A stretch of DNA of 64,000 nt from an uncultured Microthrixaceae bacterium (GCA_963715505.1 OY970242.1:2683788-2747787), one strand, 5' to 3'; positions 9,300-64,000 are shown, numbered from the stretch's first letter. Notes: generated by a model not told the origin, from the letters alone. Translations and numbers: made by a program.

Positions 9300-10637
9300 T
9301 CAGAGCCGGGGCAGGTACCGGTCCAGCTCGAACTGCGACACGTGCCGCTTGTACGCCTGCCACTCGGCGCGCTTGTTGCGGATGAACCACGTGAAGACGT
9401 GCTCCCCGAGCGCCTCCGCGACGAGCTCGGAGCGCTCCATCTCGTCGAGCGCCTCGGCCAGGGACCCGGGCAGGATCGCCATGCCCTCGGCCAGCCGCTC
9501 CTGCTCGGTGAGCTGGTAGAGGTTGGCCGACGTCTCCGCGGGCAGGTCGTAGCCCTCCTCCACGCCCTTCAGGCCAGCGGCGAGGATCACCGAGAAGGCG
9601 AGGTAGGGGTTGCAGGACGGGTCGGGCGCCCGGAACTCGATGCGCGTGGAGTCGGCCTTGCCGACCTTGATCGGCGGCACGTTGACCACGACCGAGCGGT
9701 TGTTGCGCGCCCAGGCCACGTAGATGGGCGCCTCGAAGCCGATGACGAGGCGCTTGTACGAGTTGACCCACTGGTTGGTGACCGCGGCGATCTCGCGGGC
9801 GTGGTGGAGCACGCCGGCGATGAACCCGCGGGCGACCTTCGACAGGTTGCGGTCGTCGCCCGGGTCGTAGAAGGAGTTGGTGTCGCCCTCGAACAGCGAG
9901 AAGTGGGTGTGCATGCCCGAGCCCTGCACCTCGGCGAGGGGCTTGGGCATGAAGGTGGCGTGCACGCCGGCTTCGAGCGCCACCTCGCGCACCACGAGGC
10001 GGAACGTCATGACGTTGTCCGCCATGGTGAGCGCATCGGTGTAGCGCAGGTCGATCTCGTGCTGGCTCGGCGCGTCCTCGTGGTGGCTGTACTCCACGGG
10101 GATGCCCATCGCCTCGAGGGTGTGGATCGTGCGCTGGCGGAGGTCGGACGCCACGTCGGCGGTGGTGAGGTCGAAGTACGAGGCCTGGTCGAGCGGCTTG
10201 GGCGGACCCTCCGCCGGGTCGCCGTTGGCGAAGTAGAAGAACTCGACCTCGGGGGCGGCGTAGAAGCTGAAGCCTCGCTCGCGCGCCTTGTCGAGGTTGC
10301 GACGCAGCACCTGGCGGGGATCGCCCTCGAAGGCGGTGCCGTCGATGTTCGTGATGTCGCAGAACATGCGCGCCGAGGTGCCGTAGGAGTCGGCCCACGG
10401 GAGCAGCTCGAAGCTGTTCGGGTCGGGGCGGGCGAGCACGTCGCTCTCCTGGACGCGGCTGAAGCCGTCGATCGCCGATCCGTCGAAGCGCATGCCCTCG
10501 TCGAAGGCGCCCTCGAGCTCGGCGGGCGAGATGGCGAAGGACTTGAGCTGGCCGAGGACGTCCGTGAACCAGAGCCGGATGAGCCGGACCCCTCGCTCCT
10601 CGACCGTGCGCAGGACGTAGTCTCGCTGCCGCTCCAT
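9300..10637 (-). CDS. glnA2: type I glutamine synthetase paralogue (GlnA2-like, 445 aa)
   Basis: ATG 10637 (MERQRDYVLRTVEERGVRLIRLWFTDVLGQLKSF...). GS signatures are HHEDAPSQHEIDL, KPLAEVQGSGMHTHFSL, NSYKRLV and RIEFRAPDPSCNPYLAF. Confidence 0.85.
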   Translation of the reverse strand: MERQRDYVLRTVEERGVRLIRLWFTDVLGQLKSFAISPAELEGAFDEGMRFDGSAIDGFSRVQESDVLARPDPNSFELLPWADSYGTSARMFCDITNIDGTAFEGDPRQVLRRNLDKARERGFSFYAAPEVEFFYFANGDPAEGPPKPLDQASYFDLTTADVASDLRQRTIHTLEAMGIPVEYSHHEDAPSQHEIDLRYTDALTMADNVMTFRLVVREVALEAGVHATFMPKPLAEVQGSGMHTHFSLFEGDTNSFYDPGDDRNLSKVARGFIAGVLHHAREIAAVTNQWVNSYKRLVIGFEAPIYVAWARNNRSVVVNVPPIKVGKADSTRIEFRAPDPSCNPYLAFSVILAAGLKGVEEGYDLPAETSANLYQLTEQERLAEGMAILPGSLAEALDEMERSELVAEALGEHVFTWFIRNKRAEWQAYKRHVSQFELDRYLPRL

Positions 10638-10676
10638 GGCGCAATGATGACAGCCAGCCACGACGAGCGACACTCC

Positions 10677-10724
10677 GTGACGGTCGTTCACATTCCGTTC
10701 ACACGAGCGAAAAGGCCGGGAAAC
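10677..10724. promoter_or_regulatory. candidate GlnR-box array in the glnA2/glnII divergent intergenic region
   Basis: Five 5-nt half-sites at about 11-bp phasing: GTGAC(10677) n6 TCACA(10688) n5 TTCAC(10698) n6 GAAAA(10709) n6 GAAAC(10720). This resembles the Streptomyces GlnR consensus gTnAc-n6-GaAAc. Confidence 0.35.
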
Positions 10725-10812
10725 CGCCCGCTGCGAGCGTGGAGCCGCCACCGCCGGGCCATGTGCCGGCGATCCCTCTGCCCACCACTCCTACCTGGAG
10801 GAACGAAACCCG

Positions 10813-11826
10813 ATGGCGTACAAGGCTGAGTACATCTGGATCGACGGCACCCAGCCGACGGCCAAGCTCCGCTCGAAGACGAAGGTCCTCGACGACGGCG
10901 TGCAGGCAGCAGACCTGCCGATCTGGGGCTTCGACGGCTCCTCCACCAACCAGGCTCCGGGCGACGCGTCGGACTGCGTGCTGCAGCCCGTGTTCACCTG
11001 CCCCGACCCGATCCGGGGCGGCAGCAACATCCTCGTGCTCTGCGAGGTGCTCTACATCGACATGACGCCGCACGAGAGCAACACCCGCCGGGCGTGTGCC
11101 GAGACGGCCGAGCGCTTCGCCGCCCACGAGCCGATCTTCGGCATCGAGCAGGAGTACACGTTCTTCAAGGACGGGCGCCCCTACGGCTTCCCGTTCGGCG
11201 GCTTCCCGGCGCCCCAGGGCGGCTACTACTGCGGTGTGGGCGACGACGAGGTCTACGGCCGCGACGTCGTCGAGGCGCACCTCGACGCCTGCCTCGCTGC
11301 CGGGCTGCACATCTCCGGCATCAACGCCGAGGTGATGCCCGGGCAGTGGGAGTTCCAGGTCGGCCCGGTGGCGCCGCCCCAGGTCGGCGACGAGCTGTGG
11401 GTGGCCCGCTGGCTTCTCTACCGCATCGCCGAGGACTTCGGGATCTCGGCCACGCTCGACCCCAAGCCGGTGAAGGGCGACTGGAACGGTGCCGGGGCCC
11501 ACACCAACTTCTCGACCAAGGCCATGCGCGAGGGCTACGACCCGATCATCGCGGCGTGCGAGGCCCTCGGCACCAGGGTCAAGGAGCACGTGGAGCTCTA
11601 CGGCCACGGCATCGAGGATCGCCTCACCGGTCAGCACGAGACGGCGCCCTACGACCAGTACAGCTACGGCGTCTCCGACCGGGGTGCCTCAGTGCGCATC
11701 CCCTGGCAGGTCGAGGTCGACAAGAAGGGCTACATCGAGGATCGCCGGCCCAACGCCAACTGCGATCCGTACGAGGTGACCCGCATCATCGTCGACACGG
11801 TCTGCGGCGCCGCCCTGGAGGCGTAG
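10813..11826 (+). CDS. glnII: type II (eukaryote-like) glutamine synthetase
   Basis: MAYKAEYIWIDGTQPTAKLRSKTKVL...GFDGSSTNQA...EQEYTFF...GPYYCGVG-like GGYYCGVG...NAEVMPGQWEFQVGP...HTNFST: a collinear GSII signature set. 337 aa. Confidence 0.9.
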   Translation: MAYKAEYIWIDGTQPTAKLRSKTKVLDDGVQAADLPIWGFDGSSTNQAPGDASDCVLQPVFTCPDPIRGGSNILVLCEVLYIDMTPHESNTRRACAETAERFAAHEPIFGIEQEYTFFKDGRPYGFPFGGFPAPQGGYYCGVGDDEVYGRDVVEAHLDACLAAGLHISGINAEVMPGQWEFQVGPVAPPQVGDELWVARWLLYRIAEDFGISATLDPKPVKGDWNGAGAHTNFSTKAMREGYDPIIAACEALGTRVKEHVELYGHGIEDRLTGQHETAPYDQYSYGVSDRGASVRIPWQVEVDKKGYIEDRRPNANCDPYEVTRIIVDTVCGAALEA

Positions 11827-11845
11827 CCCACCCACCCCCCGCCGC

Positions 11846-11934
11846 GTTCCTGCGGCACCTCGTCGTTCCTACGACACACCTCGTCGTTCCTGCGGCAGCT
11901 GATCAAGGTCTTGCTGAGCTTCTGCCGCAGGAAC
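11846..11934 (+). repeat. three direct GTTCC-headed repeats ending in a GGTCTTG-loop hairpin (dispersed hairpin family, copy 1); may double as the glnII terminator
   Basis: GTTCCTGCGGCACCTCGTC / GTTCCTACGACACACCTCGTC / GTTCCTGCGGCAGCTGATCAA-GGTCTTG-CTGAGCTTCTGCCGCAGGAAC. GTTCC occurs at 11846, 11865 and 11886; the loop is 11907-11913. The hairpin is followed by GACGGGTTTTGG. Confidence 0.7.
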
Positions 11935-11988
11935 GACGGGTTTTGGCAGCGACTACCGTGCCTGGTCGGTCGAACCGAGGAGGCAACG

Positions 11989-13413
11989 ATGGAGGAGCGC
12001 ACCGCCAACGAGGTGCTCGAGCTGGTCGGGTCCGAGGCGGTCGAGTTCGTCGACCTCCGGTTCTGCGACCTGCCCGGCGTCATGCAGCACGTGACCATCC
12101 CGGCCGGCGTGCTCGACGAGGGCCAGTTCGAGGATGGCCACGCGTTCGACGGGTCCTCGGTCCGTGGGTTCCAGGAGATCCAGGAATCCGACATGGTGCT
12201 CATCGCCGACCCCAACACCGCCTACCTGGACCCCTTCCGCGCCCGCAAGACGCTGGTGATGCACTGCTACGTCGCCGATCCGGTCACGGGTGAGCGCTAC
12301 AGCCGCGACCCGCGCTACGTCGCGCAGAAGGCACAGGAGCACCTGTTCTCCACGGGCCTCGCCGACACCGCCTACTTCGGACCCGAGCCCGAGTTCTTCA
12401 TCTTCGACGACGTGCGGTTCGAGACGAAGCCGAACGGCAGCTTCTACCAGGTCGACTCCGTCGAGGGTCAGTGGAACACCGGCAAGGACGAGGGCCCGAA
12501 CCTCGGCTACAAGCCCCGCACCAAGGAGGGCTACTTCCCGGCGCCGCCGATGGACCACTACATGGACCTGCGCTCGGAGATGTCGGCCACCCTGCACCAG
12601 GTCGGCATCGAGACCGAGCTGCACCACCACGAGGTCGCCTCGGGCGGACAGGGCGAGATCGGCATGCGCTTCGACACGCTGCTGGCGATGGCCGACAAGC
12701 TGATGACGTTCAAGTACGTGCTGAAGAACGTCGCCTGGGCGGCCGGCAAGAGCCTCACGTTCATGCCGAAGCCGATCTTCGAGGACAACGGCTCGGGCAT
12801 GCACACGCACCAGTCGCTCTGGAAGGGCGGGGAGCCGCTCTTCTACGACGAGGCCGGCTATGCGGGCCTGTCGGACCTCGCCCGCTGGTACATCGGCGGG
12901 CTGCTGCACCACGCCGACGCCGTCATCGCCTTCACGAACCCGACGACCAACAGCTTCAAGCGGCTGGTGCCGGGCTACGAGGCGCCGGTGAACCTCGTCT
13001 ACAGCCAGCGCAACCGCTCTGCCGCCTGCCGGATCCCCCTCGGTCAGCGCAGCCCGAAGGCCAAGCGCGTCGAGTTCCGCTGCCCCGACAACACCTCGAA
13101 CCCGTACCTTGCCTTCTCCGCGATGATGCTCGCCGGCCTCGACGGCATCACGAACCGCATCGAGCCGCCGACGCCGATGGACAAGGACCTCTACGACCTG
13201 CCGCCCGAGGAGCTGGCGCAGGTCCCCCAGGTCCCCGGCTCGCTCGAGGCCGCGCTCGACGCGCTCGAGGCCGACAACGACTTCCTCCGGGTCGGCGGCG
13301 TCTTCACCGACGACCTGCTCGACACCTGGATCGCCTACAAGCGCTCCCATGAGGTCGACGCCCTCCGCCTGCGCCCGCACCCCTACGAGTTCACCCTCTA
13401 CTACGACATCTGA
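11989..13413 (+). CDS. glnA: type I glutamine synthetase (GSI-beta, adenylylatable)
   Basis: ATG 11989 is preceded by GAGGAGG. Sequence: [30 protein letters not shown]...; [45 protein letters not shown]. The adenylylation-site context is [12 protein letters not shown]. Confidence 0.95.
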
Positions 13414-18681: not shown

Positions 18682-19011
18682 GTGGACGTCAAGCTGATCG
18701 AGTCCTGCTGCCCGCCGCTGCTCGAGGCGCCGCTCGACGAGGCCGGGGCGGCCGAGCTCGCGCGGGCCTTCAAGGTCCTCGCCGACCCGGTCCGGCTCCG
18801 CCTGCTGTCGTTGATCGCCGCCTCGCCCGGTGGCAGCGCCTGCAGCTGCGACCTCGAGGAACCGGTCGGCAAGAGCCAGCCCACCGTCAGCCACCACCTC
18901 TCCCTGCTGGCCGATGCCGGGCTCATCACCAAGTCGAAGCAGGGTCGCTGGGTCTACTGCAGCGTGGTGCCCGAGCGCCTCGCCGTGCTGCGCGACGCGC
19001 TCGGCGGCTGA
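18682..19011 (+). CDS. ArsR/SmtB-family metalloregulator
   Basis: ELARAFKVLADPVRLRLLSLIAASPGGSACSCDLEEPVGKSQPTVSHHLSLLADAGLI. Includes the CxC metal site and an N-terminal CC pair. Confidence 0.85.
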   Translation: MDVKLIESCCPPLLEAPLDEAGAAELARAFKVLADPVRLRLLSLIAASPGGSACSCDLEEPVGKSQPTVSHHLSLLADAGLITKSKQGRWVYCSVVPERLAVLRDALGG

Positions 19012-51920: not shown

Positions 51921-52032
51921 CATGTGACGGTCAGGCGATCTGCGGCACACCGCAGGCTCCGCTGAGAGCTGCTGCCTCCCGGCCCTGACTCGGTTCACGG
52001 ACTGCGATTGCACAGGACCCGACCGCCACATG
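51921..52032 (-). ncRNA. ffs: signal recognition particle RNA (small/4.5S type); ends +/-10 nt
   Basis: The minus strand reads ...GUGAACCGAGUCAGGGCCGGGAGGCAGCAGCUCUCAGCGG..., matching the domain IV core GUCAGGUCCGGAAGGAAGCAGC of E. coli 4.5S. The closing helix pairs CAUGUGGCGGUC with GACCGUCACAUG. It is in the classical position upstream of dnaX. Confidence 0.75.
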
Positions 52033-53987: not shown

Positions 53988-54074
53988 GGAGAGCTGCCAG
54001 AGCGGACGAATGGGACGGTCTCGAAAACCGTTGTGGCTTTCGGGTCACCGTGGGTTCGAATCCCACGCTCTCCG
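53988..54074 (+). tRNA. tRNA-Ser (anticodon CGA)
   Basis: Acceptor GGAGAGC/GCTCTCC. Anticodon arm ACGGT-CTCGAAA-ACCGT. Long variable arm. T-arm GTGGGTTCGAATCCCAC. No encoded CCA. Confidence 0.9.
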
Positions 54075-54118: not shown

Positions 54119-54523
54119 TCAGCTCGACGGCGGCTCGCTCTCGCCGACGCAGCCGTCGGAGATGGTGAGCAGCGCGTTGCGCCCGAGCGTTCCGGAGAAG
54201 GTGGCGAAGGCGCTGTCGATGTCCTCCGGGTCGACGTCGGGGGTCAGGAAGTGGAAGGCGCCGCCGCCGCCACCGGGGCGGAACCCGGCGTAGGTCTCCC
54301 CGTCCACGTGCAGGGTCGCGGCCGACACGTCGGCCCGCCCGCCCGGCGTCAGGATCCAGTGCAGGTAGGGGTCCTGGTCCGGCGCGCACTCGACGACGCT
54401 GTCGAGACCTCGCGTGCCGTCCCAGTGGACCTGCTGGTTGGCCCATGCGGGGGCCGCCACCGCCGACACGCCAAGCACCACGAAGAGCGCGACGAGCACG
54501 CTCCAGAGCTTCTTGCTCATCAT
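54119..54523 (-). CDS. small secreted protein of unknown function (134 aa)
   Basis: Signal peptide MMSKKLWSVLVALFVVLGVSAVAAPAWA. A GAGAGG RBS lies 9-12 nt upstream of ATG 54523/54520. Confidence 0.55.
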   Translation of the reverse strand: MMSKKLWSVLVALFVVLGVSAVAAPAWANQQVHWDGTRGLDSVVECAPDQDPYLHWILTPGGRADVSAATLHVDGETYAGFRPGGGGGAFHFLTPDVDPEDIDSAFATFSGTLGRNALLTISDGCVGESEPPSS

Positions 54524-54758
54524 CTCGTCCATCCTCTCGGGGCCTTGCGAGCCCGATGGCCATGGACGCCGGTTTCGCCGTTCGCTCCCCACCAGGCCAG
54601 GCGACCAGGTACAGCCAGGCGGATCGTCACGTTCGCCCTTCGACGGAGGTACCGCCGATGAAGGCACTATCGCGACGAACGGCCGAGCGCGCAAGGGTTC
54701 CCTCGGCCGGCCCGCGTGCCTCGCCCGCAAGGCGGGGAACCGCCCGTACGCTCGGCGC

Positions 54759-56634
54759 ATGCGGCGCGGGGGTCACCACAGCATGATCGGCTCGGATCCC
54801 GCCGCTGTCGCGGGCGCCAGGCTCGATCCGTCGGTGCTGCGGCGGGTGTGGCGCTTCGCCCGGCCCTACCGCACGATGCTGGCCGGGTTCCTCGTCACGA
54901 TCGTGGCCGCCGCGCTCATCAGCCTGGCGCCGCCGCTGCTCTTCCGCGAGATCCTCGACGAGGCCATCCCCCGCGGCGACCGCCGCCTGCTCCACCTGCT
55001 GGCCGGCCTCATCGTGCTGGCAGCGGTCGCCGACGCCGGGCTCGCGCTCGTGGAGCGCTACCTGTCCGCCCGCATCGGCGAGGGGGTCATCTACGACCTC
55101 CGCGTGGCGCTGTTCGACCACGTGCAGCGCATGCCCATGTCGTTCTTCACCCGCGCCCAGACCGGCGCGCTCGACGAGCCGGCTGAGCAACGACGTGATG
55201 GGCGCGCAGCGCGCCGTCACCGGGACCCTCGGGTCGGTCGTGTCCAACGTCGTCACGCTGCTTGCCAACGGCACGGCCATCGTGCTGCTCGAGTGGCGCC
55301 TCGCCGTCATCTCGGTGGTGCTGCTCCCGCTGTTCATCGTCCCGGCCAAGCGCGTCGGTCGCCGCCTGCAGGAGCTCACCCGCGACCAGATGGAGCTCAA
55401 CGCGTCGATGAGCACGACCATGACGGAGCGCTTCAACGTGTCGGGCGCGCTGCTGGTGAAGCTCTTCGGCCGCGCGGAGGCCGAGACGACCGACTTCGCC
55501 GGCCGCGCCGACGGCGTGCGCTCGGTCGGGGTGCGCTCCGCGGTGTACGGCCGCACGTTCTTCGTGGCGCTCGGGCTCGTCGGCGCGCTCGCCACGGCCG
55601 CCGTCTACTGGATCGGCGGCCTGCTCGCCATCTCCGGCTCGGTCACCCCGGGGACCCTGGTGGCGCTGGCGGCGTTCGTGGGCCGCATCTACGGGCCGCT
55701 CACGTCGCTCACCAACGCGCGGGTCGAGGTCATGACCGCCTTCGTCAGCTTCGAGCGGGTGTTCGAGGTGCTCGACGCGCCCAGCCCGATCCAGGATCGA
55801 CCAGGTGCGGTCGACCTCGTCGCCCCGCGCGGCCGCATCGAGCTCGAGGACGTCCGCTTCGCCTACCCGACCACCTCCATCGTGGCCAGCCTCGAGTCGG
55901 GCGGATCGGTGCTCCACGAGCCGGACGCACCGACCTTCGTGCTCGACGGCGTCAGCGCCACCATCGAGCCGGGCCAGCTCGTGGCGCTCGTGGGGCCGTC
56001 GGGCGCGGGGAAGACGACCCTCTCCCAGCTCGTCCCGCGCCTCTACGACGTGACCGACGGCGCGGTGCGGATCGACGGCACCGACGTGCGCGACCTGACC
56101 CAGGAGAGCCTGCGCGCTGCGGTCGGCGTGGTGAGCCAGGACCCGCACATGTTCCACGACACGATCGGCAACAACCTGCGCTACGGCCGCCCCGACGCCA
56201 GCGACGACGAGGTCATGGCCGCTGCGACCGCCGCGCAGATCGGGCCGCTGATCCGGTCGCTGCCGAACGGGTTCGACACCATCGTGGGCGAGCGCGGGCA
56301 CCGCCTCTCCGGTGGCGAGAAGCAGCGGCTCGCCATCGCGCGCATGCTCCTGAAGGACCCCGCCATCGTGATCCTCGACGAGGCGACCAGCCACCTCGAC
56401 TCCGAGAACGAGGCGCTCGTGCAGCGGGCGCTCGCCGAGGCGCTCGCGGGCCGCACCAGCGTGGTGATCGCGCACCGGCTCTCGACCATCGTCGCGGCCG
56501 ACAACATCCTCGTGCTCGACCAGGGCCGCGTCGTGCAGCAGGGCACCCACGAGGAGCTCATCGAGGCCGGCGGCCTCTATGCCGACCTCTACCGGACGCT
56601 GCTGCACGCCGAGCTCACCGGCGAGGCGGTCTGA
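54759..56634 (+). pseudogene. ABC exporter (fused permease-ATPase) with an apparent +1 frameshift at about 55172-55173
   Basis: The N-part is in the frame of ORF 54414.. (MRRGGHHSMIGSDP...FFTRAQTGAL). The C-part is in the frame of ORF 55195.. (TSRLSNDVMGAQRAVTGTLGS...GPSGAGKTT...LSGGEKQR...ILDEATS). The conserved block TGAL-TSRLSNDV is split by a single extra base. Confidence 0.75.
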
Positions 56635-56697: not shown

Positions 56698-56720
56698 GGA
56701 TCTGACGGCGCGTCAGGTCG
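56698..56720. promoter_or_regulatory. CTGACG-N3-CGTCAG palindrome, site A (19 nt upstream of the acyl-CoA dehydrogenase ATG)
   Basis: GGGATCTGACGGCGCGTCAGGTCG. Confidence 0.5.
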
Positions 56721-56738
56721 GCCGGTAGCGTCGCGCCG

Positions 56739-57926
56739 ATGGACCTGGGGTTCAGCGCCGAGGACGAGGCCTTCCGCCACGAGGTCCGCAGCTTCCTCGA
56801 GGACAGCTTGGCCGGAGACTTCGCCGAGGTCCGCGGCCGCGGCGGCCCTGGTGACGACGACTGCCTCTTCGAGGAGCGCCTGGCCTGGGAGCGCCACCTC
56901 GGCGCCAACGGCTGGACCTGCGTGGCGTGGCCCAAGGAGCACGGCGGGCGCGAGCTGTCGCTGCACCAGCAGGTCGTCTACTTCGAGGAGTACGCCCGGG
57001 CGCGCGCGCCGGGTCGCATCGGTCACATCGGCGAGACGCTGCTCGGGCCCACGCTGATCGCCTTCGGCAGCGAGGCGCAGCAGGCGCGCTTCCTGCCGGG
57101 CATCGTGGCGGGCACCGAGCTGTGGTGCCAGGGCTACAGCGAGCCCGGCGCCGGGTCCGATCTCGCCAACGTGCAGACCCGCGCCGAGCTCGTCGACGGC
57201 CAGTGGGTGGTGGAGGGCCAGAAGGTGTGGACGAGCCAGGCGCACTGGGCGGACTGGTGCTTCGTCCTGGCGCGCACGAACCGCGACGCCGCCAAGCACA
57301 AGGGCATCTCCTACCTCCTCGTGCCGATGCGCCAGGACGGTGTCGAGATCCGCCCGATCCACCAGGTGACCGGCGACTCGGAGTTCAACGAGGTGTTCTT
57401 CAGCGGCGCCCGCACCGAGGAGGCGAACGTGGTCGGCGAGGTCGACGGTGGGTGGCGCGTGGCGATGGGCACGCTCGCCTTCGAGCGGGGCGCGTCGACG
57501 CTCGGGCAGAACCTGATGTTCCTCAACGAGTGGGACGAGGTGGTGGCGGTCGCCCGTGCCAACGGCCGCATCGACGACGCCGCGCTGCGCCAGCGCATCG
57601 TCGACTGCTGGGTGCGCTTGCGGCTGATGCGGCTCAACGCCATGCGCATCATGTCGTCGACCCACGAGGCGCCGCCCGCCGCGATGGTCACGAAGCTGTT
57701 CTGGGCCACCCTGCACCGCGACCTCGGCGAGCTGGCGATGGACGTCCTCGGCGCCGAGGCCACCCTGCGCACCGGTGCCCCACGGCCCGACGGCACCGCC
57801 GACTTCTCGCGCCTGCAGCGGCTCTTCCTCTTCAGCCGCAGTGACACCATCTACGCCGGCACGAACCAGATCCAGCGCAACATCATCGGCGAGCGCGCGC
57901 TCGGCCTGCCCAAGGAGCCGTCATGA
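56739..57926 (+). CDS. acyl-CoA dehydrogenase
   Basis: 395 aa. WCQGYSEPGAGSDLA, a C-terminal QRLFLFSRSDTIYAGTNQIQRNIIGERALGLP, and typical ACAD N/M/C domain order. Confidence 0.9.
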   Translation: MDLGFSAEDEAFRHEVRSFLEDSLAGDFAEVRGRGGPGDDDCLFEERLAWERHLGANGWTCVAWPKEHGGRELSLHQQVVYFEEYARARAPGRIGHIGETLLGPTLIAFGSEAQQARFLPGIVAGTELWCQGYSEPGAGSDLANVQTRAELVDGQWVVEGQKVWTSQAHWADWCFVLARTNRDAAKHKGISYLLVPMRQDGVEIRPIHQVTGDSEFNEVFFSGARTEEANVVGEVDGGWRVAMGTLAFERGASTLGQNLMFLNEWDEVVAVARANGRIDDAALRQRIVDCWVRLRLMRLNAMRIMSSTHEAPPAAMVTKLFWATLHRDLGELAMDVLGAEATLRTGAPRPDGTADFSRLQRLFLFSRSDTIYAGTNQIQRNIIGERALGLPKEPS

Positions 57927-57993
57927 CCCGTCCCGGCGCGATGCTCGAGCGGGTGCGATGCCCGAACCGCCCGAGAGCCAGGAGCGACCGACG

Positions 57994-58779
57994 ATGACAA
58001 CACCGGCACCCACTCGGCCCCCCGCCGGGCGCGACCTGCTGGCGGGCAAGGTCGTGCTGGTGACGGCGGCGGCGGGCACCGGGATCGGCAACGCGACGGC
58101 GCGCCGCTGCATCGAGGAGGGCGCCACCGTGGTGCTCAGCGATGCCCACGAGCGGCGCCTCGGCGAGGCAGCCGACGAGCTCGAGGCGCTGGCCGGCAGC
58201 GGTCTGCTCAGCGTGGCCTGCGACGTGACGGTGGAGGCTCAGGTGCAGGCCATGGTCGACGCCACCGTCGCCGAGCACGGGCGCATCGACGTGGTGGTCA
58301 ACAACGCGGGCCTCGGCGGCACGGCCGAGCTCGTCGACATGACCGACGAGCAGTGGTCGAAGGTGCTCGACATCACGCTGACCGGCACGATGCGCTGCAT
58401 GCGCGCCACCCTGCGGCAGATGTACGAGCAGCGGTCTGGCGTGATCGTCAACAACGCGTCGGTGCTCGGCTGGCGGGCACAGGCGGGCCAGGCCCACTAC
58501 GCCGCCGCCAAGGCGGGCGTCATGGCGCTGACTCGCTGCGGCGCGATCGAGGCGGCCCGGCACGGCGTGCGCATCAACGCCGTGGCGCCGTCGCTGGCCA
58601 TGCACCCCTTCCTCGCCAAGGTCACGACCGGCGAGCTGCTCGACGAGCTGACCAGCCGCGAGGCGTTCGGTCGGGCGGCCCAGCCGTGGGAGGTGGCGAC
58701 CGTCATCGCCTTCCTGGCGAGCGACTACTCCACGTACATGACCGGCGAGGTCGTGTCGGTGTCGTCGCAGCGGGCGTGA
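57994..58779 (+). CDS. SDR-family oxidoreductase
   Basis: AGGAG lies 9 nt upstream of ATG 57994. VLVTAAAGTGIGNA (TGxxxGxG variant), NNAG, and the YAAAK catalytic motif. Confidence 0.85.
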   Translation: MTTPAPTRPPAGRDLLAGKVVLVTAAAGTGIGNATARRCIEEGATVVLSDAHERRLGEAADELEALAGSGLLSVACDVTVEAQVQAMVDATVAEHGRIDVVVNNAGLGGTAELVDMTDEQWSKVLDITLTGTMRCMRATLRQMYEQRSGVIVNNASVLGWRAQAGQAHYAAAKAGVMALTRCGAIEAARHGVRINAVAPSLAMHPFLAKVTTGELLDELTSREAFGRAAQPWEVATVIAFLASDYSTYMTGEVVSVSSQRA

Positions 58780-59234
58780 TGGCGGCGTTCGAGACGCTCG
58801 ACGCGCTGCGCGGCGCGGTCGGCGACCACCTCGGCTGGACCGAGTGGGTCGAGGTCGACCAGGCCCGCGTCGACCGCTTCGCCGAGGCCACCGGCGACCA
58901 CCAGTGGATCCACGTCGACGTGGCGCGCGCCCGCGCCGAGAGCCCCTTCGGTGGCCCGATCGCCCACGGCTACCTCACGCTGGCGCTGTCGAACCTGTTC
59001 CTGCCGCAGCTGCTGCAGGTGCCCGGCGCGTCGGCAGGGGTGAACTACGGCACCGGCAGGGTGCGCTTCCCGGCGCCGGTGTCCGTGGGCAGCCGCGTCC
59101 GGGCCGGCGCCGAGATCGCCGCCGTCGAGGAGATCGCGGGCGGCGTCCAGACCACGATCACCATCACGATCGAGGTCGAGGGCGGCGACAAGCCCGCCTG
59201 CGTCATCGAGTCGCTCAGCCGTTGGCTCGAGTAG
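58779..59234 (+). CDS. MaoC-like (R)-specific enoyl-CoA hydratase/dehydratase
   Basis: Its ATG overlaps the SDR stop (TGATG). Sequence: FAEATGDHQWIHVDVARARAESPFGGPIAHGYLTLAL (hot-dog fold motif). Confidence 0.85.
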   Translation: MAAFETLDALRGAVGDHLGWTEWVEVDQARVDRFAEATGDHQWIHVDVARARAESPFGGPIAHGYLTLALSNLFLPQLLQVPGASAGVNYGTGRVRFPAPVSVGSRVRAGAEIAAVEEIAGGVQTTITITIEVEGGDKPACVIESLSRWLE

Positions 59235-59398
59235 CCGGCAGCTCGGCCTCGGCGAGGTTCTCGATGGGGCTGGGCGAGGTCCCCTCAGGCGCCGTCGGGC
59301 TGCAGCTGGAGGACCATCGGCCCCCCGGTCGTGGCGTCGAAGAACCGGCTCGGCTCGGTGGGCTGGCGCATGGCGCCATGGTGCCCGAAGCGGTCTCG

Positions 59399-60595
59399 TC
59401 AGGTCGTCAGCAGGACGGCGCTCCCGTGGCCGAAGAGGCCCTGGTTGACGGTGATGCCGGCGGTGGCGCCCTCGACCTGGCGCCCCTCCGCCTGGCCGCG
59501 CAGCTGCCAGGTGACCTCGCAGACCTGGGCGATGGCCTGGGCGGGCACCGCCTCGCCGAAGCAGGCCAGCCCGCCTGACGGGTTGACGGGCACGCGGCCG
59601 CCGATGGTGGTGTCGCCGTCGTTGAGGAGGCGCTCTGCCTCGCCCTCCTTGCAGAGCCCGATGTTCTCGTACCAGTCGAGCTCGAGCGCCGTGGAGAGGT
59701 CGTACACCTCGGCCAGGCTCAGCTCGTCGGGGCCGATGCCGGCCTCGTCGTAGGCGCCCTGCGCGATCGAGTCGCGGAAGGTGCGCTCGGGCGGGGCGAG
59801 GGCCGCCGCGGAGTCGGTGGCGAAGTTGGGCATCTCGATCACCGTGTTCGGGAACTGCGGCGTGACCGTGGAGATGGCGCGGACGCGCACCGGCGCCGCG
59901 ATGCCATGGGCGCGGGCGTAGTCCATCGAGGTGAGGACGACCGCGGCGGCGCCGTCGGAGGTGGCGCAGATCTCGAGCAGCCGCAAGGGGTCGGCGACCA
60001 TCGGCGAGGCCAGCACCTCCTCCTCGGTGACCTCCTTGCGGTAGCGCGCGTTCGGGTTGTGCAGCCCGTGACGGGCGTTCTTCACCTTGACCTTGGCGAA
60101 GTCGGCGTCGGTGGCGCCGTAGAGGTCGATGCGGCGACGGGCGTAGAGCGCGAAGTACGTCGGGTTGGTGGCGCCGAGCAGCCGGAAGCGCAGCCAGTCG
60201 GGGTCGTCCCAGCGCTCGCCGGCCACGGGCGCGAGGAACCCCTTCGGCGTCGTGTCGGCGCCCACCACGAGCGCCACGTCGCACAGCCCGGCGAGGATGC
60301 GCGTGCGCGCCGCCTCGAGCGCGGTGGCCCCCGACGCGCACGCCGCGTAGCACGACGCCACCCGCGCGCCGTTCCAGCCGAGCGCCTGCGTGAGCGTCGA
60401 GGCGGCGACGTAGCCCGGGTAGCCGTTGCGGACCGTCTCGCCGCCGGCCACGAACTGCACGTCGGTCCAGTCGATGCCCGCGTCGTCGAGCGCGGCGAGC
60501 GCGGCGTCGATGCCGTACTCGTGGAAGGGCCGGCCCCACTTGCCCCACGGGTGCATGCCGACGCCGGCGACGGCGACGGGCTCGGGCGCGCTCAC
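59399..60595 (-). CDS. thiolase-like lipid-transfer (SCP-x/Ltp-type) protein
   Basis: GTG 60595 overlaps the stop of the DUF35 gene (GTGA). Sequence: VAVAGVGMHPWGKW...SCYAACASGATAL...NPSGGLACFGEAVPAQA. Confidence 0.85.
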   Translation of the reverse strand: MSAPEPVAVAGVGMHPWGKWGRPFHEYGIDAALAALDDAGIDWTDVQFVAGGETVRNGYPGYVAASTLTQALGWNGARVASCYAACASGATALEAARTRILAGLCDVALVVGADTTPKGFLAPVAGERWDDPDWLRFRLLGATNPTYFALYARRRIDLYGATDADFAKVKVKNARHGLHNPNARYRKEVTEEEVLASPMVADPLRLLEICATSDGAAAVVLTSMDYARAHGIAAPVRVRAISTVTPQFPNTVIEMPNFATDSAAALAPPERTFRDSIAQGAYDEAGIGPDELSLAEVYDLSTALELDWYENIGLCKEGEAERLLNDGDTTIGGRVPVNPSGGLACFGEAVPAQAIAQVCEVTWQLRGQAEGRQVEGATAGITVNQGLFGHGSAVLLTT

Positions 60596-61026
60596 GAGCT
60601 GACCGGCTTCCAGCGGTAGATGAGGTGCTCGACGCCGTCGACCTCGTACAGCGGCTCGACGACGAGCTCGACGGCCGCCCCGACCGACAGGTCGTCGACG
60701 CCGAAGCCCTTCGCCACCTGGCCGAGCACGACGAGCTGCTCGGCAGCGAGCTCCACAGCGGCGAGCGCGAAGGGCTCGTAGGGGTCCGACGCCGGGAGGT
60801 AGGGCGGCGGCGGCTGGTACTGCGCGTCGGTGTAGCTCCACACCGTGCCGGTGCGGGACAGCTCGATGTCGTCGAACTGGCGGCCGCGGCACGCCGGGTT
60901 GCGGCAGAAGCCGGCCGAGCGCGGGAAGAACACGGTGCCGCAGGTGGTGCAGCGCGTGCCCAGCAGCCGCGGTTCGGCCTCGGTGGTGAACCAGCCCTCG
61001 ACGGCCGGCACCGGGGTGGGAGACAT
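60592..61026 (-). CDS. Zn-ribbon + OB-fold protein (DUF35 family), partner of the thiolase-like protein
   Basis: LLGTRCTTCGTVFFPRSAGFCRNPACRG (rubredoxin-like Zn ribbon) followed by an OB-fold segment. Confidence 0.85.
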   Translation of the reverse strand: MSPTPVPAVEGWFTTEAEPRLLGTRCTTCGTVFFPRSAGFCRNPACRGRQFDDIELSRTGTVWSYTDAQYQPPPPYLPASDPYEPFALAAVELAAEQLVVLGQVAKGFGVDDLSVGAAVELVVEPLYEVDGVEHLIYRWKPVSS

Positions 61027-61047
61027 CGTCGCTCCTCGTGGCGAGTC

Positions 61048-61070
61048 GGTTCCTGACGGAGCGTCAGATC
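61048..61070. promoter_or_regulatory. CTGACG-N3-CGTCAG palindrome, site B (22 nt upstream of the DUF35 start)
   Basis: GGTTCCTGACGGAGCGTCAGATC. Confidence 0.5.
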
Positions 61071-61200
61071 ATTGGCGAGTCTCGCACACGCCTGATGGCC
61101 CTCGCCGCTTTGCCCACCCGGGCGCGCGTCTGGTGGGATGACCCCTCGGGATGCCGGCAGGGCGAATCCTGGGTTTCGAACGACCGAAGAACGGCCATCG

Positions 61201-61881
61201 GTGGACGACGCACTCACCAAGTCGGAACGAGAGGCGCTCAAGGCGATCTACCGCCTCACCCGGGAGGGCGCCGACGCCCACACCGGAGCGCTCGCCGACG
61301 TGCTCGGCCTCTCCCCCGGCACCGTCACCACCACGGTCAAGCGCCTCGCCGACCGCGGCTTCGTCGACCATCGTCCCTACCAGGGCGTGAGCTTCACGGA
61401 CCGGGGCCGCCAGATCGCCGTGGCTGCCATCCGGCGCCACCGCATCGTCGAGCGCTTCCTCGCCGACATGCTCGGCTACGCCTGGAACGAGGCCGACCGC
61501 TTCGCGGTCAGCTTCGAGCACGAGCTGCCCGACGAGGTGCTCGAGCGGCTCTTCGTCGCGCTGCACCAGCCCGTGACCTGCCCCCACGGCTTCCCGATCC
61601 CCAGCGCCGAGGACGGTGAGCTGCCGGCCACGCCGGCCCTCTACGCGCTCGAACCGGGCGACGTCGCCGAGGTGGCCCTGTCGGGCTCGACCGACCCGGA
61701 GCTGGTCACCTTCCTCGGCACGCTCGGGCTCGTCCCCGGCGTCGAGGTCGTGGTGGTCGAGAAGCACCCCTTCGACGGTCCGCTCGTCGTCAAGGTCGAC
61801 GGCCAGGACCGCACGCTCGGCGAGCGGGTGGCGCGCCAGATCTACGTCACCCGGCGCGACTCCGCCACGAGCGCGTCCTGA
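61201..61881 (+). CDS. DtxR-family metal-dependent regulator (IdeR/MntR-like) with a C-terminal FeoA/SH3-like domain
   Basis: GTG 61201. Sequence: LADVLGLSPGTVTTTVKRLADRGFVDHRPYQGVSFTDRGRQIAVAAIRRHRIVERFL...HELPDEVLERL...CPHGFPIP. Confidence 0.85.
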   Translation: MDDALTKSEREALKAIYRLTREGADAHTGALADVLGLSPGTVTTTVKRLADRGFVDHRPYQGVSFTDRGRQIAVAAIRRHRIVERFLADMLGYAWNEADRFAVSFEHELPDEVLERLFVALHQPVTCPHGFPIPSAEDGELPATPALYALEPGDVAEVALSGSTDPELVTFLGTLGLVPGVEVVVVEKHPFDGPLVVKVDGQDRTLGERVARQIYVTRRDSATSAS

Positions 61882-61884
61882 CGT

Positions 61885-62640
61885 TCAGCCGTCGGCGGCC
61901 GCGGCGAGGAAGGCCGGGCGCTCCCCGCCGCCGTGGAGCAGCAGGTTGGCGCCGGTGGCGTAGCCCGACAGGGGGCTGGCGAGGAACACGACCGCGTCGG
62001 CGACGTCGCCCGGCGTGCACATGCGCCCGTTCGGCACCGTTGCCGCAACCCGCGCGACGCCCTGCGCGCCGCCGTAGTGCTCGAGGCTGTCGTCGGTGGC
62101 GACGAGGCCGGCGGACACCGCGTTGACGCGCACCTTGGGCGCCCACTCGACGGCGAGCGTCTGCGTGAGGTTGAGCAGTCCGGCCTTCGCTGCGCCGTAG
62201 GCGGCCGTGCCCGGCGAGGGACGCAGGCCGCTCACGCTGGCCACGTTGACGACGGCACCGCCGTCCGCCTGCGCCTGCATCACGCGGTTGGCGGCCTGCG
62301 CCACGTGGAGCGGAGCCAGCAGGTTGAGGCGGATGATGGCCTCGCTGAAGCGCGGCGAGGCATCGGCGGCGTCGGCGCTGGGGGACCCGCCGGCGTTGTT
62401 GACCGCCACGTCGAGCCGGCCGTGGCGCGCGACCACGGCGTCCACGAGCGCGCCGACCTGGTCGGGGTCGCGCACGTCGCACGCCACGAACTCGTGCTGC
62501 GGCTGGGCCGGCTCGTTGCGACCGCAGACCACCACGGCGGCACCTGCCTCGGTGAGGCGGTCGGCGATGGCGGCGCCGATGCCCTTGGTGCCGCCGGTGA
62601 CGAGGGCCACCCGGCCGCTGAGGTCGACGCTGATCGCCAT
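61885..62640 (-). CDS. SDR-family oxidoreductase
   Basis: ATG 62640. ALVTGGTKGIGAAIA, NNAG, YGAAKAG. Confidence 0.85.
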   Translation of the reverse strand: MAISVDLSGRVALVTGGTKGIGAAIADRLTEAGAAVVVCGRNEPAQPQHEFVACDVRDPDQVGALVDAVVARHGRLDVAVNNAGGSPSADAADASPRFSEAIIRLNLLAPLHVAQAANRVMQAQADGGAVVNVASVSGLRPSPGTAAYGAAKAGLLNLTQTLAVEWAPKVRVNAVSAGLVATDDSLEHYGGAQGVARVAATVPNGRMCTPGDVADAVVFLASPLSGYATGANLLLHGGGERPAFLAAAADG

Positions 62641-62674
62641 CGGCGAAGGTGTACCAGACCGGGGCCGCCAACTA

Positions 62675-62698
62675 GGTTCCTGACGACCCGTCAGAACC
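62675..62698. promoter_or_regulatory. CTGACG-N3-CGTCAG palindrome, site C (SDR/enoyl-CoA hydratase divergent region)
   Basis: GGTTCCTGACGACCCGTCAGAACC. It lies 18 nt upstream of ATG 62716 and 35 nt upstream of the minus-strand ATG 62640. Confidence 0.5.
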
Positions 62699-62715: not shown

Positions 62716-63477
62716 ATGCCGACCACGAGCACCACCCACGACGACGGCGTCGCCGAGGTCGTGATGGACAACCCGCCGGTCAACGCCCTGACGGTGGCCG
62801 GCTGGTTCGAGCTGGCCGACCTGCTCGGCGAGCTCGGGCGCGACCCGCAGGTGCGCGCGGTGGTGCTCCGGGCCGAGGGGCGCGGCTTCAACGCCGGGGT
62901 CGACATCAAGGAGATGCAGGCGACCGAGGGCTTCGAGGCGCTGATCGGCGCCAACCGCGGCTGCTACGCCGCCTTCGCGGCGGTCTACGACTGCCCGGTG
63001 CCCGTCGTCGCCGCGGTCAACGGGTTCTGCCTGGGCGGCGGCATCGGCCTGGTCGGCAACGCCGACGTGATCGTCGCCGCCGACGACGCCACCTTCGGGC
63101 TGCCCGAGGTCGACCGCGGGGCGCTGGGCGCTGCCACGCACCTGTCGCGCCTCGTGCCCCAGCACAAGATGCGGGCGATGGTCTACACGTCGGCCACCGC
63201 GTCGGCGCAGGAGCTGCACCACTTCGGGTCGGTGCTCCAGGTCGTTCCTGCGGGCGAGCTGCGCGACGCCGCCATGGCGGTCGCACGGCAGATCGCGGCC
63301 AAGTCGCCGACGGTGATCCGGGCCGCCAAGGAGAGCCTCAACGGGATCGACCCCTGGGACGTCAAGCGGTCGTACCGCTTCGAGCAGGGTTTCACGTTCG
63401 AGCTCAACCTCTCCGGCGTGGCCGACGAGCACCGCGACGCCTTCGTCACCAAGCGCGAGACCGACACGTCGACATGA
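62716..63477 (+). CDS. enoyl-CoA hydratase/isomerase (crotonase fold)
   Basis: VVLRAEGRGFNAGVDIKEM...AAVNGFCLGGGIGLVGNADVIVAADDATFGLPEVDRG. Confidence 0.85.
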   Translation: MPTTSTTHDDGVAEVVMDNPPVNALTVAGWFELADLLGELGRDPQVRAVVLRAEGRGFNAGVDIKEMQATEGFEALIGANRGCYAAFAAVYDCPVPVVAAVNGFCLGGGIGLVGNADVIVAADDATFGLPEVDRGALGAATHLSRLVPQHKMRAMVYTSATASAQELHHFGSVLQVVPAGELRDAAMAVARQIAAKSPTVIRAAKESLNGIDPWDVKRSYRFEQGFTFELNLSGVADEHRDAFVTKRETDTST

Positions 63478-64000
63478 CCGAGGCCCGCGACAAGCGCTGC
63501 ACCGAGGACGAAGCCGTCGCCGAGCTGCGCTCGGGCATGACGATCGGCTTCGGCGGCTGGGGATCGCGGCGCAAGCCGATGTCGATCGTGCGGGCCATCC
63601 TGCGCAGCGACCTGACCGACCTGACCGTCGTGTCGTGGGGCGGGCCCGACGTGGGCCTGCTCTGCGCGGCGGGCAAGGTGAAGCGGCTGCTCTACGCCTT
63701 CGTGTCGCTCGACTCGATCCCCCTCGAGCCGCACTTCCGGGCCGCACGCCAGAGCGGTGCGATCGAGGACGAGCCCTACGACGAGGGCATGTTCCTGCTC
63801 GGCCTGCAGGCGGCGGCGTGGCGGGTGCCGTTCCTGCCGACGCGGGTCGGGCTGGGTTCGGACCTGCTGCGCGACAACCCCCGCCTGCGCACGGTCACCT
63901 CGCCCTACGACGACGGCGAGGAGCTCGTGGCAGCACCCGCCATCACGATGGACGCCGCCTTCGTGCACATGAACCGCGCCGACGCCCGCGGCAACGGCCA
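63474..64000 (+). CDS. CoA-transferase subunit A (IpdA-like); C-terminus outside the window
   Basis: Its ATG overlaps the echA stop (ATGA). Sequence: AVAELRSGMTIGFGGWGSRRKPMSIVRAILRS..LTVVSWGG.... Confidence 0.75.
   Translation, partial: MTEARDKRCTEDEAVAELRSGMTIGFGGWGSRRKPMSIVRAILRSDLTDLTVVSWGGPDVGLLCAAGKVKRLLYAFVSLDSIPLEPHFRAARQSGAIEDEPYDEGMFLLGLQAAAWRVPFLPTRVGLGSDLLRDNPRLRTVTSPYDDGEELVAAPAITMDAAFVHMNRADARGNG

Follow-up and report, generated by a model that had tools for sequence, protein, structure and literature searches.

The closest described counterpart of the locus presented here is the KstR2 system (Rv3557c) of Mycobacterium and Rhodococcus, in which a TetR-family repressor acts on a short palindrome placed before several transcription units. 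The KstR2 regulon comprises an SDR, EchA20, IpdAB, IpdC, FadE and a FadA6-type thiolase (PMC5380842), and the same module is found in a stretch of 64,000 nucleotides from an uncultured Microthrixaceae bacterium (GCA_963715505.1 OY970242.1:2683788-2747787; this whole stretch is called the window) and in its relatives. Here the catabolic genes are preceded by a 15-bp palindrome, CTGACG-N3-CGTCAG, which is present in the promoter regions of three transcription units. We consider it likely that these palindromes are operators of one dimeric repressor, the best candidate being an autoregulated protein with TetR_N and TetR_C_38 domains that would be encoded elsewhere in the genome.

Similar to the mycobacterial cluster, the window contains divergent SDR and echA-ipdA genes with a shared operator, and the mycobacterial SDR genes Rv3548c/Rv3549c hold the position that corresponds to the PRK07856-type SDR gene of the window. 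The differences concern the regulation. The KstR2 operator, AnCAAGnnCTTGnT, differs from the palindrome, and no copy of it occurs between 56 and 64 kb even if one mismatch is allowed, the sole match in the window being located at 11902, upstream of glnA. The candidate repressor is not KstR2 but carries a TetR_C_38 domain at its C-terminus, its gene lies outside the cluster, and the host lineage is Acidimicrobiia. A preliminary description of this DNA had noted that the order of the SDR, echA and CoA-transferase genes resembles the KstR2 regulon and that the palindrome matches neither the KstR nor the KstR2 motif. The resemblance is real at the level of the enzymes (IpdA structures, see below; PMC5380842), and both boxes are indeed absent from the block. 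Judged from the sequence data, the circuit is thus KstR2-like in function, but it departs from KstR2 in both box and regulator. Our literature search found no paper that links KstR2 with Acidimicrobiia, and nothing relevant on the palindrome itself, a search that did not cover TetR_C_38.

We assign the block to the HIP (steroid rings C/D) module, which is of the kind regulated by KstR2 in mycobacteria, because the full-length IpdA orthologue from a related locus (L002) scores 350 bits (E about 1e-104) against the IpdA structures 6CO6/6CON (Rhodococcus jostii, M. tuberculosis) and because the best NCBIfam match of the IpdC-like (NMO) gene is FabK, as has been reported for IpdC (PMC5380842). According to the same paper, ipdAB, echA20, ipdC, the ipdF-type SDR, fadE and the fadA6-type thiolase have roles in the HIP pathway, and this KstR2 target set was found in the window and its relatives together. 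In the relatives, echA is followed by ipdA, ipdB, a fourth palindrome and an operon of the NMO/FabK-like gene (ipdC), two acyl-CoA dehydrogenase (ACAD) genes (fadE-fadE) and a thiolase gene; beyond the latter unrelated genes begin, which marks the end of the cluster. The module has two additional units, ACAD-SDR-MaoC and DUF35-thiolase. Homologues of the cluster genes and of the DtxR-family regulator encoded within the block come from metagenome-assembled genomes of Acidimicrobiia, Acidimicrobiales and Microthrixaceae.

Other TetR proteins offer partial parallels. KstR (Rv3574), which controls the cholesterol regulon, represses many lipid and steroid catabolic genes, as is proposed for the circuit described here, and the make-up of its regulon recalls the set of genes found next to the palindrome in metagenomes (Amidohydro_2, luciferase-like, ACAD, CoA-transferase III, DUF35-thiolase). 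Its box, TnnAACnnGTTnnA, has 0 matches in the window. The footprinted operator of Ms6564, a TetR-family protein from Mycobacterium smegmatis, is GAGACG-gta-CGTCTC and lies in the promoter of its own gene (PMC3273814). It has exactly the three-nucleotide spacer and the same inner half-site core as the palindrome, whereas the outer bases of the half-sites are different. Broad activation of DNA-repair genes has been described for Ms6564, unlike the local catabolic repression proposed here, and a PDB sequence search detected no close sequence relationship between Ms6564 and our candidate. Compared with these systems, the palindrome is predicted to be a real, conserved operator with a newly paired candidate regulator of the TetR family.

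The palindrome, its promoters and its conservation

The window, with a G+C content of 73%, contains exactly three perfect copies of the palindrome (Table 1), all of them intergenic and in promoter regions, and no further copy at one mismatch or less. In dinucleotide-preserving shuffles the mean number of palindromes was 0.02, and three or more occurred in 0 of 100 shuffles; copies with up to two mismatches are at chance level (6 found, i.e. three extra, versus 9.6 expected). These counts bear out the earlier statement that the motif occurs only three times in the 64 kb. An 11-nt left arm said to be common to two sites is real for sites 2 and 3, where it reads GGTTCCTGACG. The layout of sites and genes was given with correct placement, but the minus-strand orientation of the DUF35 operon was overlooked, as was the fourth operator, which in the relatives precedes the ipdC operon (L002 16377-16391, L004 18473, L006 19181, L008 16245, L010 17663) and corresponds to a position about 3 kb past the end of the window. 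The operator is a 6-3-6 palindrome in which flanking Y/R positions are also conserved, and its half-sites fit a helix-turn-helix dimer.

Conservation was counted in 80 loci (L001-L080) taken around orthologues of the DtxR-family gene that lies beside site 2. The 28 related loci that bear the cluster (410 kb) contain 27 perfect palindromes and 24 with one mismatch, versus no perfect and 4 one-mismatch copies in 51 related loci without the catabolic genes (814 kb), which gives a one-mismatch background of about 5 per Mb. Contrary to the case considered in the preliminary description, in which the motif would be missing before the orthologous operons of relatives, it is present at orthologous positions before the ACAD, DUF35, echA/SDR and ipdC genes in about 25 genomes of related Acidimicrobiia, whose proteins retain about 70-90% identity. 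Operator 1 has its orthologous site in L001, L002, L008, L009, L011, L015, L018, L021 and others; operator 3 is kept including its flanks in L004, L008 and L010, and was also found in L018 and L021. The consensus is a-Y-CTGAC-R-s-n-s-Y-GTCAG-R-t. Since the arms stay constant at orthologous positions while the three-base spacer and the flanks vary, the pattern is that expected of a protein-binding site. One relative, L005, has lost most of the pathway, and only fragments of DUF35, thiolase and ipdC are left (9650-9850 and 18863-19010); the perfect palindrome beside the DUF35 remnant reads as a relic operator.

Hexamers of the type TANNNT are found 6-9 nt before the start codons next to the palindrome, in the promoters of the target genes as well as in those of the TetR genes described below. 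In the ACAD class the order is palindrome, 9-10 nt, TAGCGT, 7 nt, ATG, and hexamer and spacing are kept in L002, L007, L008, L009, L011 and L021, while a second clade has the palindrome, a hexamer of the type ATATnGT, 6-7 nt and GTG. This arrangement implies that the mRNA would be leaderless and that the operator would extend across the -35/spacer region. In the ipdC class a -10-like hexamer, TAATCT, overlaps the left arm of the operator. A GTG that straddles the spacer and the right arm, and that the open reading frame (ORF) caller took as start, may be the start codon, although the gene call of the source for L083 starts later; if it is the start, it would account for the invariable TGTCAG of this class. 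Members of the DUF35 class have the palindrome about 10 nt after a conserved extended -10-like element, TGcGAGACT, and ahead of a Shine-Dalgarno sequence. A -10-like TAGGTT abuts the left arm of operator 3. The TetR genes have TAGCCT or TACGAT 6-9 nt before their start codons, with the palindrome 2-20 nt upstream.

A candidate TetR-family regulator

The cluster and its ends in the relatives contain no regulator gene of the TetR, GntR or IclR type and only the DtxR-family one. A regulator at the far end was ruled out, as the cluster stops after the thiolase gene without a regulator gene. Metagenome contigs were therefore a separate source of sites: they were scanned on both strands with CCTGACGNNNCGTCAGA, a pattern that covers about 73% of the known perfect sites. 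The scan gave at least 120 loci; 59 of these have a G+C content of 62% or more and contain 60 sites, of which 42 are intergenic. The genes facing the sites encode ACADs, an IpdA, SDRs, Amidohydro_2 proteins (four loci), luciferase-like oxidoreductases (four loci), CoA-transferase III, thiolase-DUF35 fusions, an F420H2-dependent reductase and enzymes of the OYE/dienoyl-CoA reductase type. On three contigs (L149, L151, L173) the palindrome is located upstream of homologous TetR-family genes, 16 nt from the called start in L173 and 32 nt in L151; in L149 it precedes the first TetR-homologous residues by about 80 nt. The homologue in L149 (10071-10700) misses about 25 residues of DNA-binding helix 2-3, with the upstream palindrome still perfect, and is either a pseudogene or an assembly error.

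In an independent test, TetR homologues were sought by protein similarity only, using an alignment of two of the TetR proteins, and contigs were picked solely for their length. All five TetR loci chosen in this way carry the palindrome with 0-1 mismatch, 35-110 nt upstream of the called TetR start: the copies are perfect in L204/L205, L207 and L212, and have one mismatch in L206 and in L208-L211, which represent one species. With a one-mismatch background of only about 5 per Mb this is not chance. The homology-chosen loci have only one other site at one mismatch or less, CTGACGgggCCTCAG in L206 (10871-10885), about 55 nt upstream of an aldehyde dehydrogenase gene that may be a further member of the regulon. 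In total, eight species-level TetR_C_38 loci have the site directly upstream, three of them obtained via the motif and five via protein homology. The preliminary description had proposed a dimeric repressor of the TetR or GntR type encoded outside the flanked genes, and had suggested a look for a regulator gene that itself carries the site. The conservation of the palindrome and the TetR genes that bear it in related genomes support this proposal, the extended cluster of the relatives contains no gene for such a regulator, and the window has no match to the candidate.

By Pfam, the candidate consists of TetR_N and TetR_C_38, with a weak match to EthR_C. The recognition helix, G(T/S)SPATFYQYF, is invariant across the TetR proteins of two types of neighbourhood, and the source records of the members are named Acidimicrobiia. 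Type (i) has the order CoA_transf_3 - TetR - low-molecular-weight phosphatase (LMWPc) - Ppx/GppA - aldehyde dehydrogenase - aldolase II and is complete in L208-L211; L204/L205, L206, L207 and L151 have the core TetR - Ppx/GppA - aldehyde dehydrogenase in common, the gene calls in L206 being partly disrupted. The other arrangement, type (ii), is represented by L212 and, in truncated form, by L173, and reads Fur / TetR - AMP-ligase - second TetR - AMP-ligase. In L212 it adjoins a thiolase gene whose product is 78% identical to that of the FadA6-like gene of the cluster, and genes for FadA6-like, ACAD and AMP-ligase proteins are found in the vicinity of the TetR gene in both L212 and L149.

The AlphaFold model of the candidate (pLDDT 88) has ten helices in the canonical TetR fold, and its best PDB matches are all TetR proteins. 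In a fold search EthR was closest (TM 0.75/0.84), followed by FasR and the acyl-CoA-sensing FadR proteins; these nearest solved folds, with FadR from Bacillus and Thermus, share only about 15-22% sequence identity with it. The model suggests a ligand pocket that is hydrophobic or of the acyl-CoA type. In their DNA targets the structural neighbours differ from the candidate, as EthR binds a long operator as a multimer and FasR, an activator, has been studied with an oligonucleotide unrelated to the palindrome. No match to KstR2 was found in the PDB sequence search, in NCBIfam or among the best 50 fold matches listed, and the NCBIfam model for KstR gives 15.6 bits at a cut-off of 280. By these comparisons the candidate is neither KstR2 nor KstR.

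We infer that the genome from which the window derives encodes such a TetR protein and that the protein binds the palindrome and acts as a repressor. One repressor would serve the three operators in the window and the fourth just past its end, and would repress its own gene through the same palindrome. The operator would lie between the -35 and -10 elements of a leaderless promoter in the ACAD class, would cover the transcription start and the start codon in the ipdC class, would be located just downstream of the -10-like element in the DUF35 class, and would sit between the divergent promoters in the SDR/echA class. At any of these positions a bound dimer may block RNA polymerase, which is proposed since each operator would overlap or abut a putative core promoter. 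Release of the repressor by a pathway intermediate would be analogous to KstR2, FadR, FasR and EthR. The inducer is probably a CoA thioester that an acyl-CoA ligase forms from a pathway intermediate, because of the analogy with KstR2 (HIP-CoA) and FadR, the structural neighbours, and the AMP-ligase gene that in some genomes adjoins the TetR gene. The regulon would consist of the HIP module (SDR, EchA20, IpdAB, IpdC, FadE and FadA6-like thiolase) plus the ACAD-SDR-MaoC and DUF35-thiolase units.

Elsewhere among high-GC genomes, copies of the palindrome stand before Amidohydro_2, luciferase-like, CoA_transf_3, F420-dependent and OYE-type genes. Whether Microthrixaceae and related Acidimicrobiia run a HIP-type pathway under a new TetR_C_38 subfamily that non-orthologously replaces KstR2, with a wider regulon amounting to a largely undescribed network of alicyclic-lipid catabolism, is a question on which we see the balance as even. 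To our knowledge, the abundant soil and wastewater Acidimicrobiia, i.e. Microthrixaceae and their relatives, are not known as steroid degraders. If the proposal is true, this network (Amidohydro_2, luciferase-like/F420, CoA-transferase III, OYE) could be mapped from sequence by one 15-bp motif, which as a probe would pick out further members directly in metagenomes. The HIP module, under KstR2 in mycobacteria, would here be wired to a different TetR protein, and the candidate pair of regulator and operator is a concrete one for a bacterial class with almost no experimental genetics. With the effector in hand, repressor and operator might be turned into a biosensor part.

Alternative readings and the DtxR-family neighbour

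Several observations weigh against the assignment to the TetR_C_38 protein. The window has no match to the candidate, TetR gene and catabolic cluster were seen on separate contigs with no single genome linked to both, and none of the best 120 TetR homologues is located on the long Microthrixaceae contigs that bear the cluster; any orthologue that this lineage has may be further diverged. Between the two TetR subtypes the identity is only about 40%, and either of them may serve the cluster. On the side of the promoters, a stricter scan for the sigma-70 consensus, with both hexamers required, gave nothing in the window DNA; the putative promoters are proposed from the resemblance of conserved hexamers. 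A motif before a TetR gene is, moreover, equally expected if the TetR gene merely belongs to the regulon of another factor. A different DNA-binding protein might accordingly recognize the palindrome, with the TetR_C_38 genes as ordinary members of its regulon. The pairing of TetR and palindrome is so far one of sequence, the candidate has no counterpart in the window, and the TetR loci also hold genes of catabolic type (CoA_transf_3, SDR, Amidohydro_2, luciferase-like), so the site might mark a catabolic promoter. We nevertheless judge this reading unlikely, as site and TetR gene go together in two unrelated neighbourhoods, the site being found immediately 5' of the TetR start in every locus examined, whereas no second regulator family recurs beside the motif at the roughly 40 intergenic metagenome sites, as far as the matches listed go. 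Additionally, the 15-bp 6-3-6 form has a TetR precedent in the Ms6564 operator (GAGACG-N3-CGTCTC; PMC3273814). The palindrome could also act as an RNA hairpin in 5' leaders, as an element of stability or processing or as the site of an RNA-binding protein. The sites do fold as hairpins of 6-9 bp (-7 to -13 kcal/mol), the majority of one-mismatch variants, read along the strand of the gene that follows, are CTGACG-N3-TGTCAG and preserve a G-U pair, and the DUF35-class site is probably within the leader. However, the arms are constant over four non-homologous operons and the TetR genes without compensatory changes, which points to recognition of sequence, and a single site serves two divergent genes inside a 74-bp spacer. 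In the ACAD and TetR classes the -10-like hexamer between palindrome and start would leave the palindrome untranscribed; L006 and L064 break the G-U pattern, and the invariant T of the ipdC class may be forced by the possible GTG start codon inside the site. An RNA role is therefore extremely improbable. For a chance repeat or a dispersed repetitive element without regulatory role one may point to the palindromic repeats that are common in high-GC intergenic DNA, but with three sites found versus 0.02 expected, no perfect copy in the 814 kb of related DNA without the cluster, orthologous positions across genomes at about 70-90% protein identity, and 42 of the 60 high-GC metagenome sites intergenic and, among the matches listed, facing catabolic genes, it has virtually no probability; a chance origin is refuted by the conservation data.

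The DtxR-family gene invites another reading, namely that its product, as a metal-independent DtxR relative taken over by lipid catabolism, would recognize the palindrome and govern the block. The gene is the only one for a regulator within the cluster, both in the window and in about 25 relatives, and site 2 falls in its divergent intergenic region. The protein is a true member of the family (about 126 bits to M. tuberculosis MntR, 5ZR4), but across the whole group the ligand at the position of IdeR Cys102 is missing (V/I/T/G/P/A) and Asp is found in place of His98. Unlike what would be expected of the operator of such a DtxR/IdeR/MntR-type metalloregulator, the palindrome does not follow the gene. 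In most of the 80 loci the DtxR-family gene is located immediately upstream of a co-directional ORF of about 750-870 amino acids, an H+-pyrophosphatase (hppA) where identified (L005 sequence; PF03030 in L083), and most loci have no catabolic genes nearby; in 51 loci the regulator gene has neither catabolic neighbours nor a perfect palindrome. In L006 and L011 an inserted metY-like gene separates DUF35 from the DtxR-family gene, and the palindrome remains with DUF35. The apparent exception, L005, is the one locus with a palindrome before the DtxR-family gene but no DUF35 operon, and here remnants of the DUF35 N-terminus and the thiolase C-terminus adjoin, as in a deletion relic. The gene has a different, AT-rich palindrome, TTTYG(G)-N4-6-(C)CRAAA, 20-40 nt upstream in about 60 of the 80 loci, including the window, and in distant loci this box is placed between TTGAC and TANNNT hexamers, which makes it the natural candidate for the protein's own operator. 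Site 2, by comparison, is located about 45 nt upstream of the gene's own -35-like hexamer. Because the palindrome tracks the DUF35 operon and the gene has its own box and partner, we consider control by the DtxR-family protein very improbable and its gene probably a bystander. This agrees with the earlier opinion that the neighbour is an unlikely binder, and clears away the tempting misreading that the only regulator gene inside the cluster is the regulator of the block.

Other leads were dropped. A LiuR/MerR lead found no support, the operators of FasR and MftR are both unrelated to the palindrome, and a LysR-type T-N11-A reading was rejected on the argument that the sites are too near to the start codons.

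Gene map and other features of the window

The gene identities given in the preliminary description (ACAD, SDR, MaoC, DUF35/ChsH2-like, thiolase-like, DtxR family, SDR, ECH and CoA_trans) agree with the Pfam assignments. The features of the block are collected in Table 1.

Table 1. Genes, predicted operators and promoter elements of the catabolic block (positions counted from the first letter of the window)
Feature	Position	Strand	Basis and remarks
ABC exporter	ends at 56634		Pfam and reading frames
Operator 1	56702..56716	.	CTGACGgcgCGTCAG; perfect match; promoter of ACAD-SDR-MaoC operon; ends 22 nt before ACAD ATG (56739)
-10-like hexamer TAGCGT	56726..56731	+	9 nt after operator 1, 7 nt before ACAD ATG
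Acyl-CoA dehydrogenase (ACAD)	56739..57926	+	Pfam Acyl-CoA_dh_N/M/1
SDR, PRK07831-type	57994..58779	+	Pfam adh_short; NCBIfam NF005880, 419 bits; start per translation and L002 orthologue
MaoC-like hydratase	58776..59234	+	Pfam MaoC_dehydratas
SCP2-type thiolase / lipid-transfer protein	59399..60595	-	Pfam Thiolase_C_1/Thiolase_N; NCBIfam NF004715, 714 bits; PDB matches are SCP2-thiolases and BbsB
DUF35/ChsH2-like zinc-ribbon and OB-fold protein	60592..61026	-	Pfam zf-ChsH2, OB_ChsH2_C; first gene of operon
Operator 2	61053..61067	.	CTGACGgagCGTCAG; perfect match; DUF35 promoter; 26 nt upstream of DUF35 ATG (61026), in divergent DUF35/DtxR-family intergenic region
AT-rich box of DtxR-family gene	61174-61189		TTTCGaacgacCGAAG; candidate operator of DtxR-family protein
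DtxR-family regulator	61201..61881	+	Pfam Fe_dep_repress, Fe_dep_repr_C, FeoA
SDR, PRK07856-type	61885..62640	-	NCBIfam NF005893, 379 bits; frame and start read from sequence; divergent from echA
Operator 3	62680..62694	.	CTGACGaccCGTCAG; perfect match; common to divergent SDR and echA-ipdAB promoters; 21 nt before echA ATG (62716), 39 nt from SDR start (62640)
EchA20-like enoyl-CoA hydratase (echA)	62716..63477	+	Pfam ECH_1; NCBIfam NF005925, 440 bits
IpdA-like CoA-transferase alpha subunit	63474..64000, cut at window end	+	Pfam CoA_trans

In two relatives the cluster contains an insert between the MaoC and thiolase genes, consisting of an XRE-type helix-turn-helix gene and a second small gene (L002 7304-8132; L005 8810-9702). 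The second gene, which from reading alone we take to be a nucleotidyltransferase, possibly forms a toxin-antitoxin pair with the first. The insert is retained in L005 even after loss of the flanking catabolic genes.

The catabolic block is located in ordinary chromosomal surroundings, with no obvious island. An SRP RNA gene is found at 51926-52024 (minus strand) and a tRNA gene at 53988-54074 (plus strand), and 49-52 kb holds presumed dnaX-like and recR-like genes, an assignment made by eye from the N-terminal sequence only.

Farther away, three adjacent genes of the glutamine-synthetase family occupy 9300-13413: 9300-10691 (minus strand), 10813-11826 (plus strand, short form) and about 11990-13413 (plus strand). 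Between two of them, at 11883-11940, there is a 17-bp inverted repeat, CGTCGTTCCTGCGGCAG ... CTGCCGCAGGAACGACG, followed by GGGUUUUGG, about 50 nt before the glnA start; the 161-nt fold has -79 kcal/mol and a z of -4.95. Its loop holds the only KstR2-box-like sequence of the window, ATCAAGGTCTTGCT (11902-11915). The repeat is probably a terminator or attenuator, and the KstR2-like box in its loop is probably due to chance.

A c-di-GMP-II-GAG riboswitch (Rfam; 44.1 bits at a gathering score of 40) is located at 54559-54643 on the minus strand, upstream of a small gene (54119-54532, minus strand) whose product has a hydrophobic N-terminus resembling a signal peptide.

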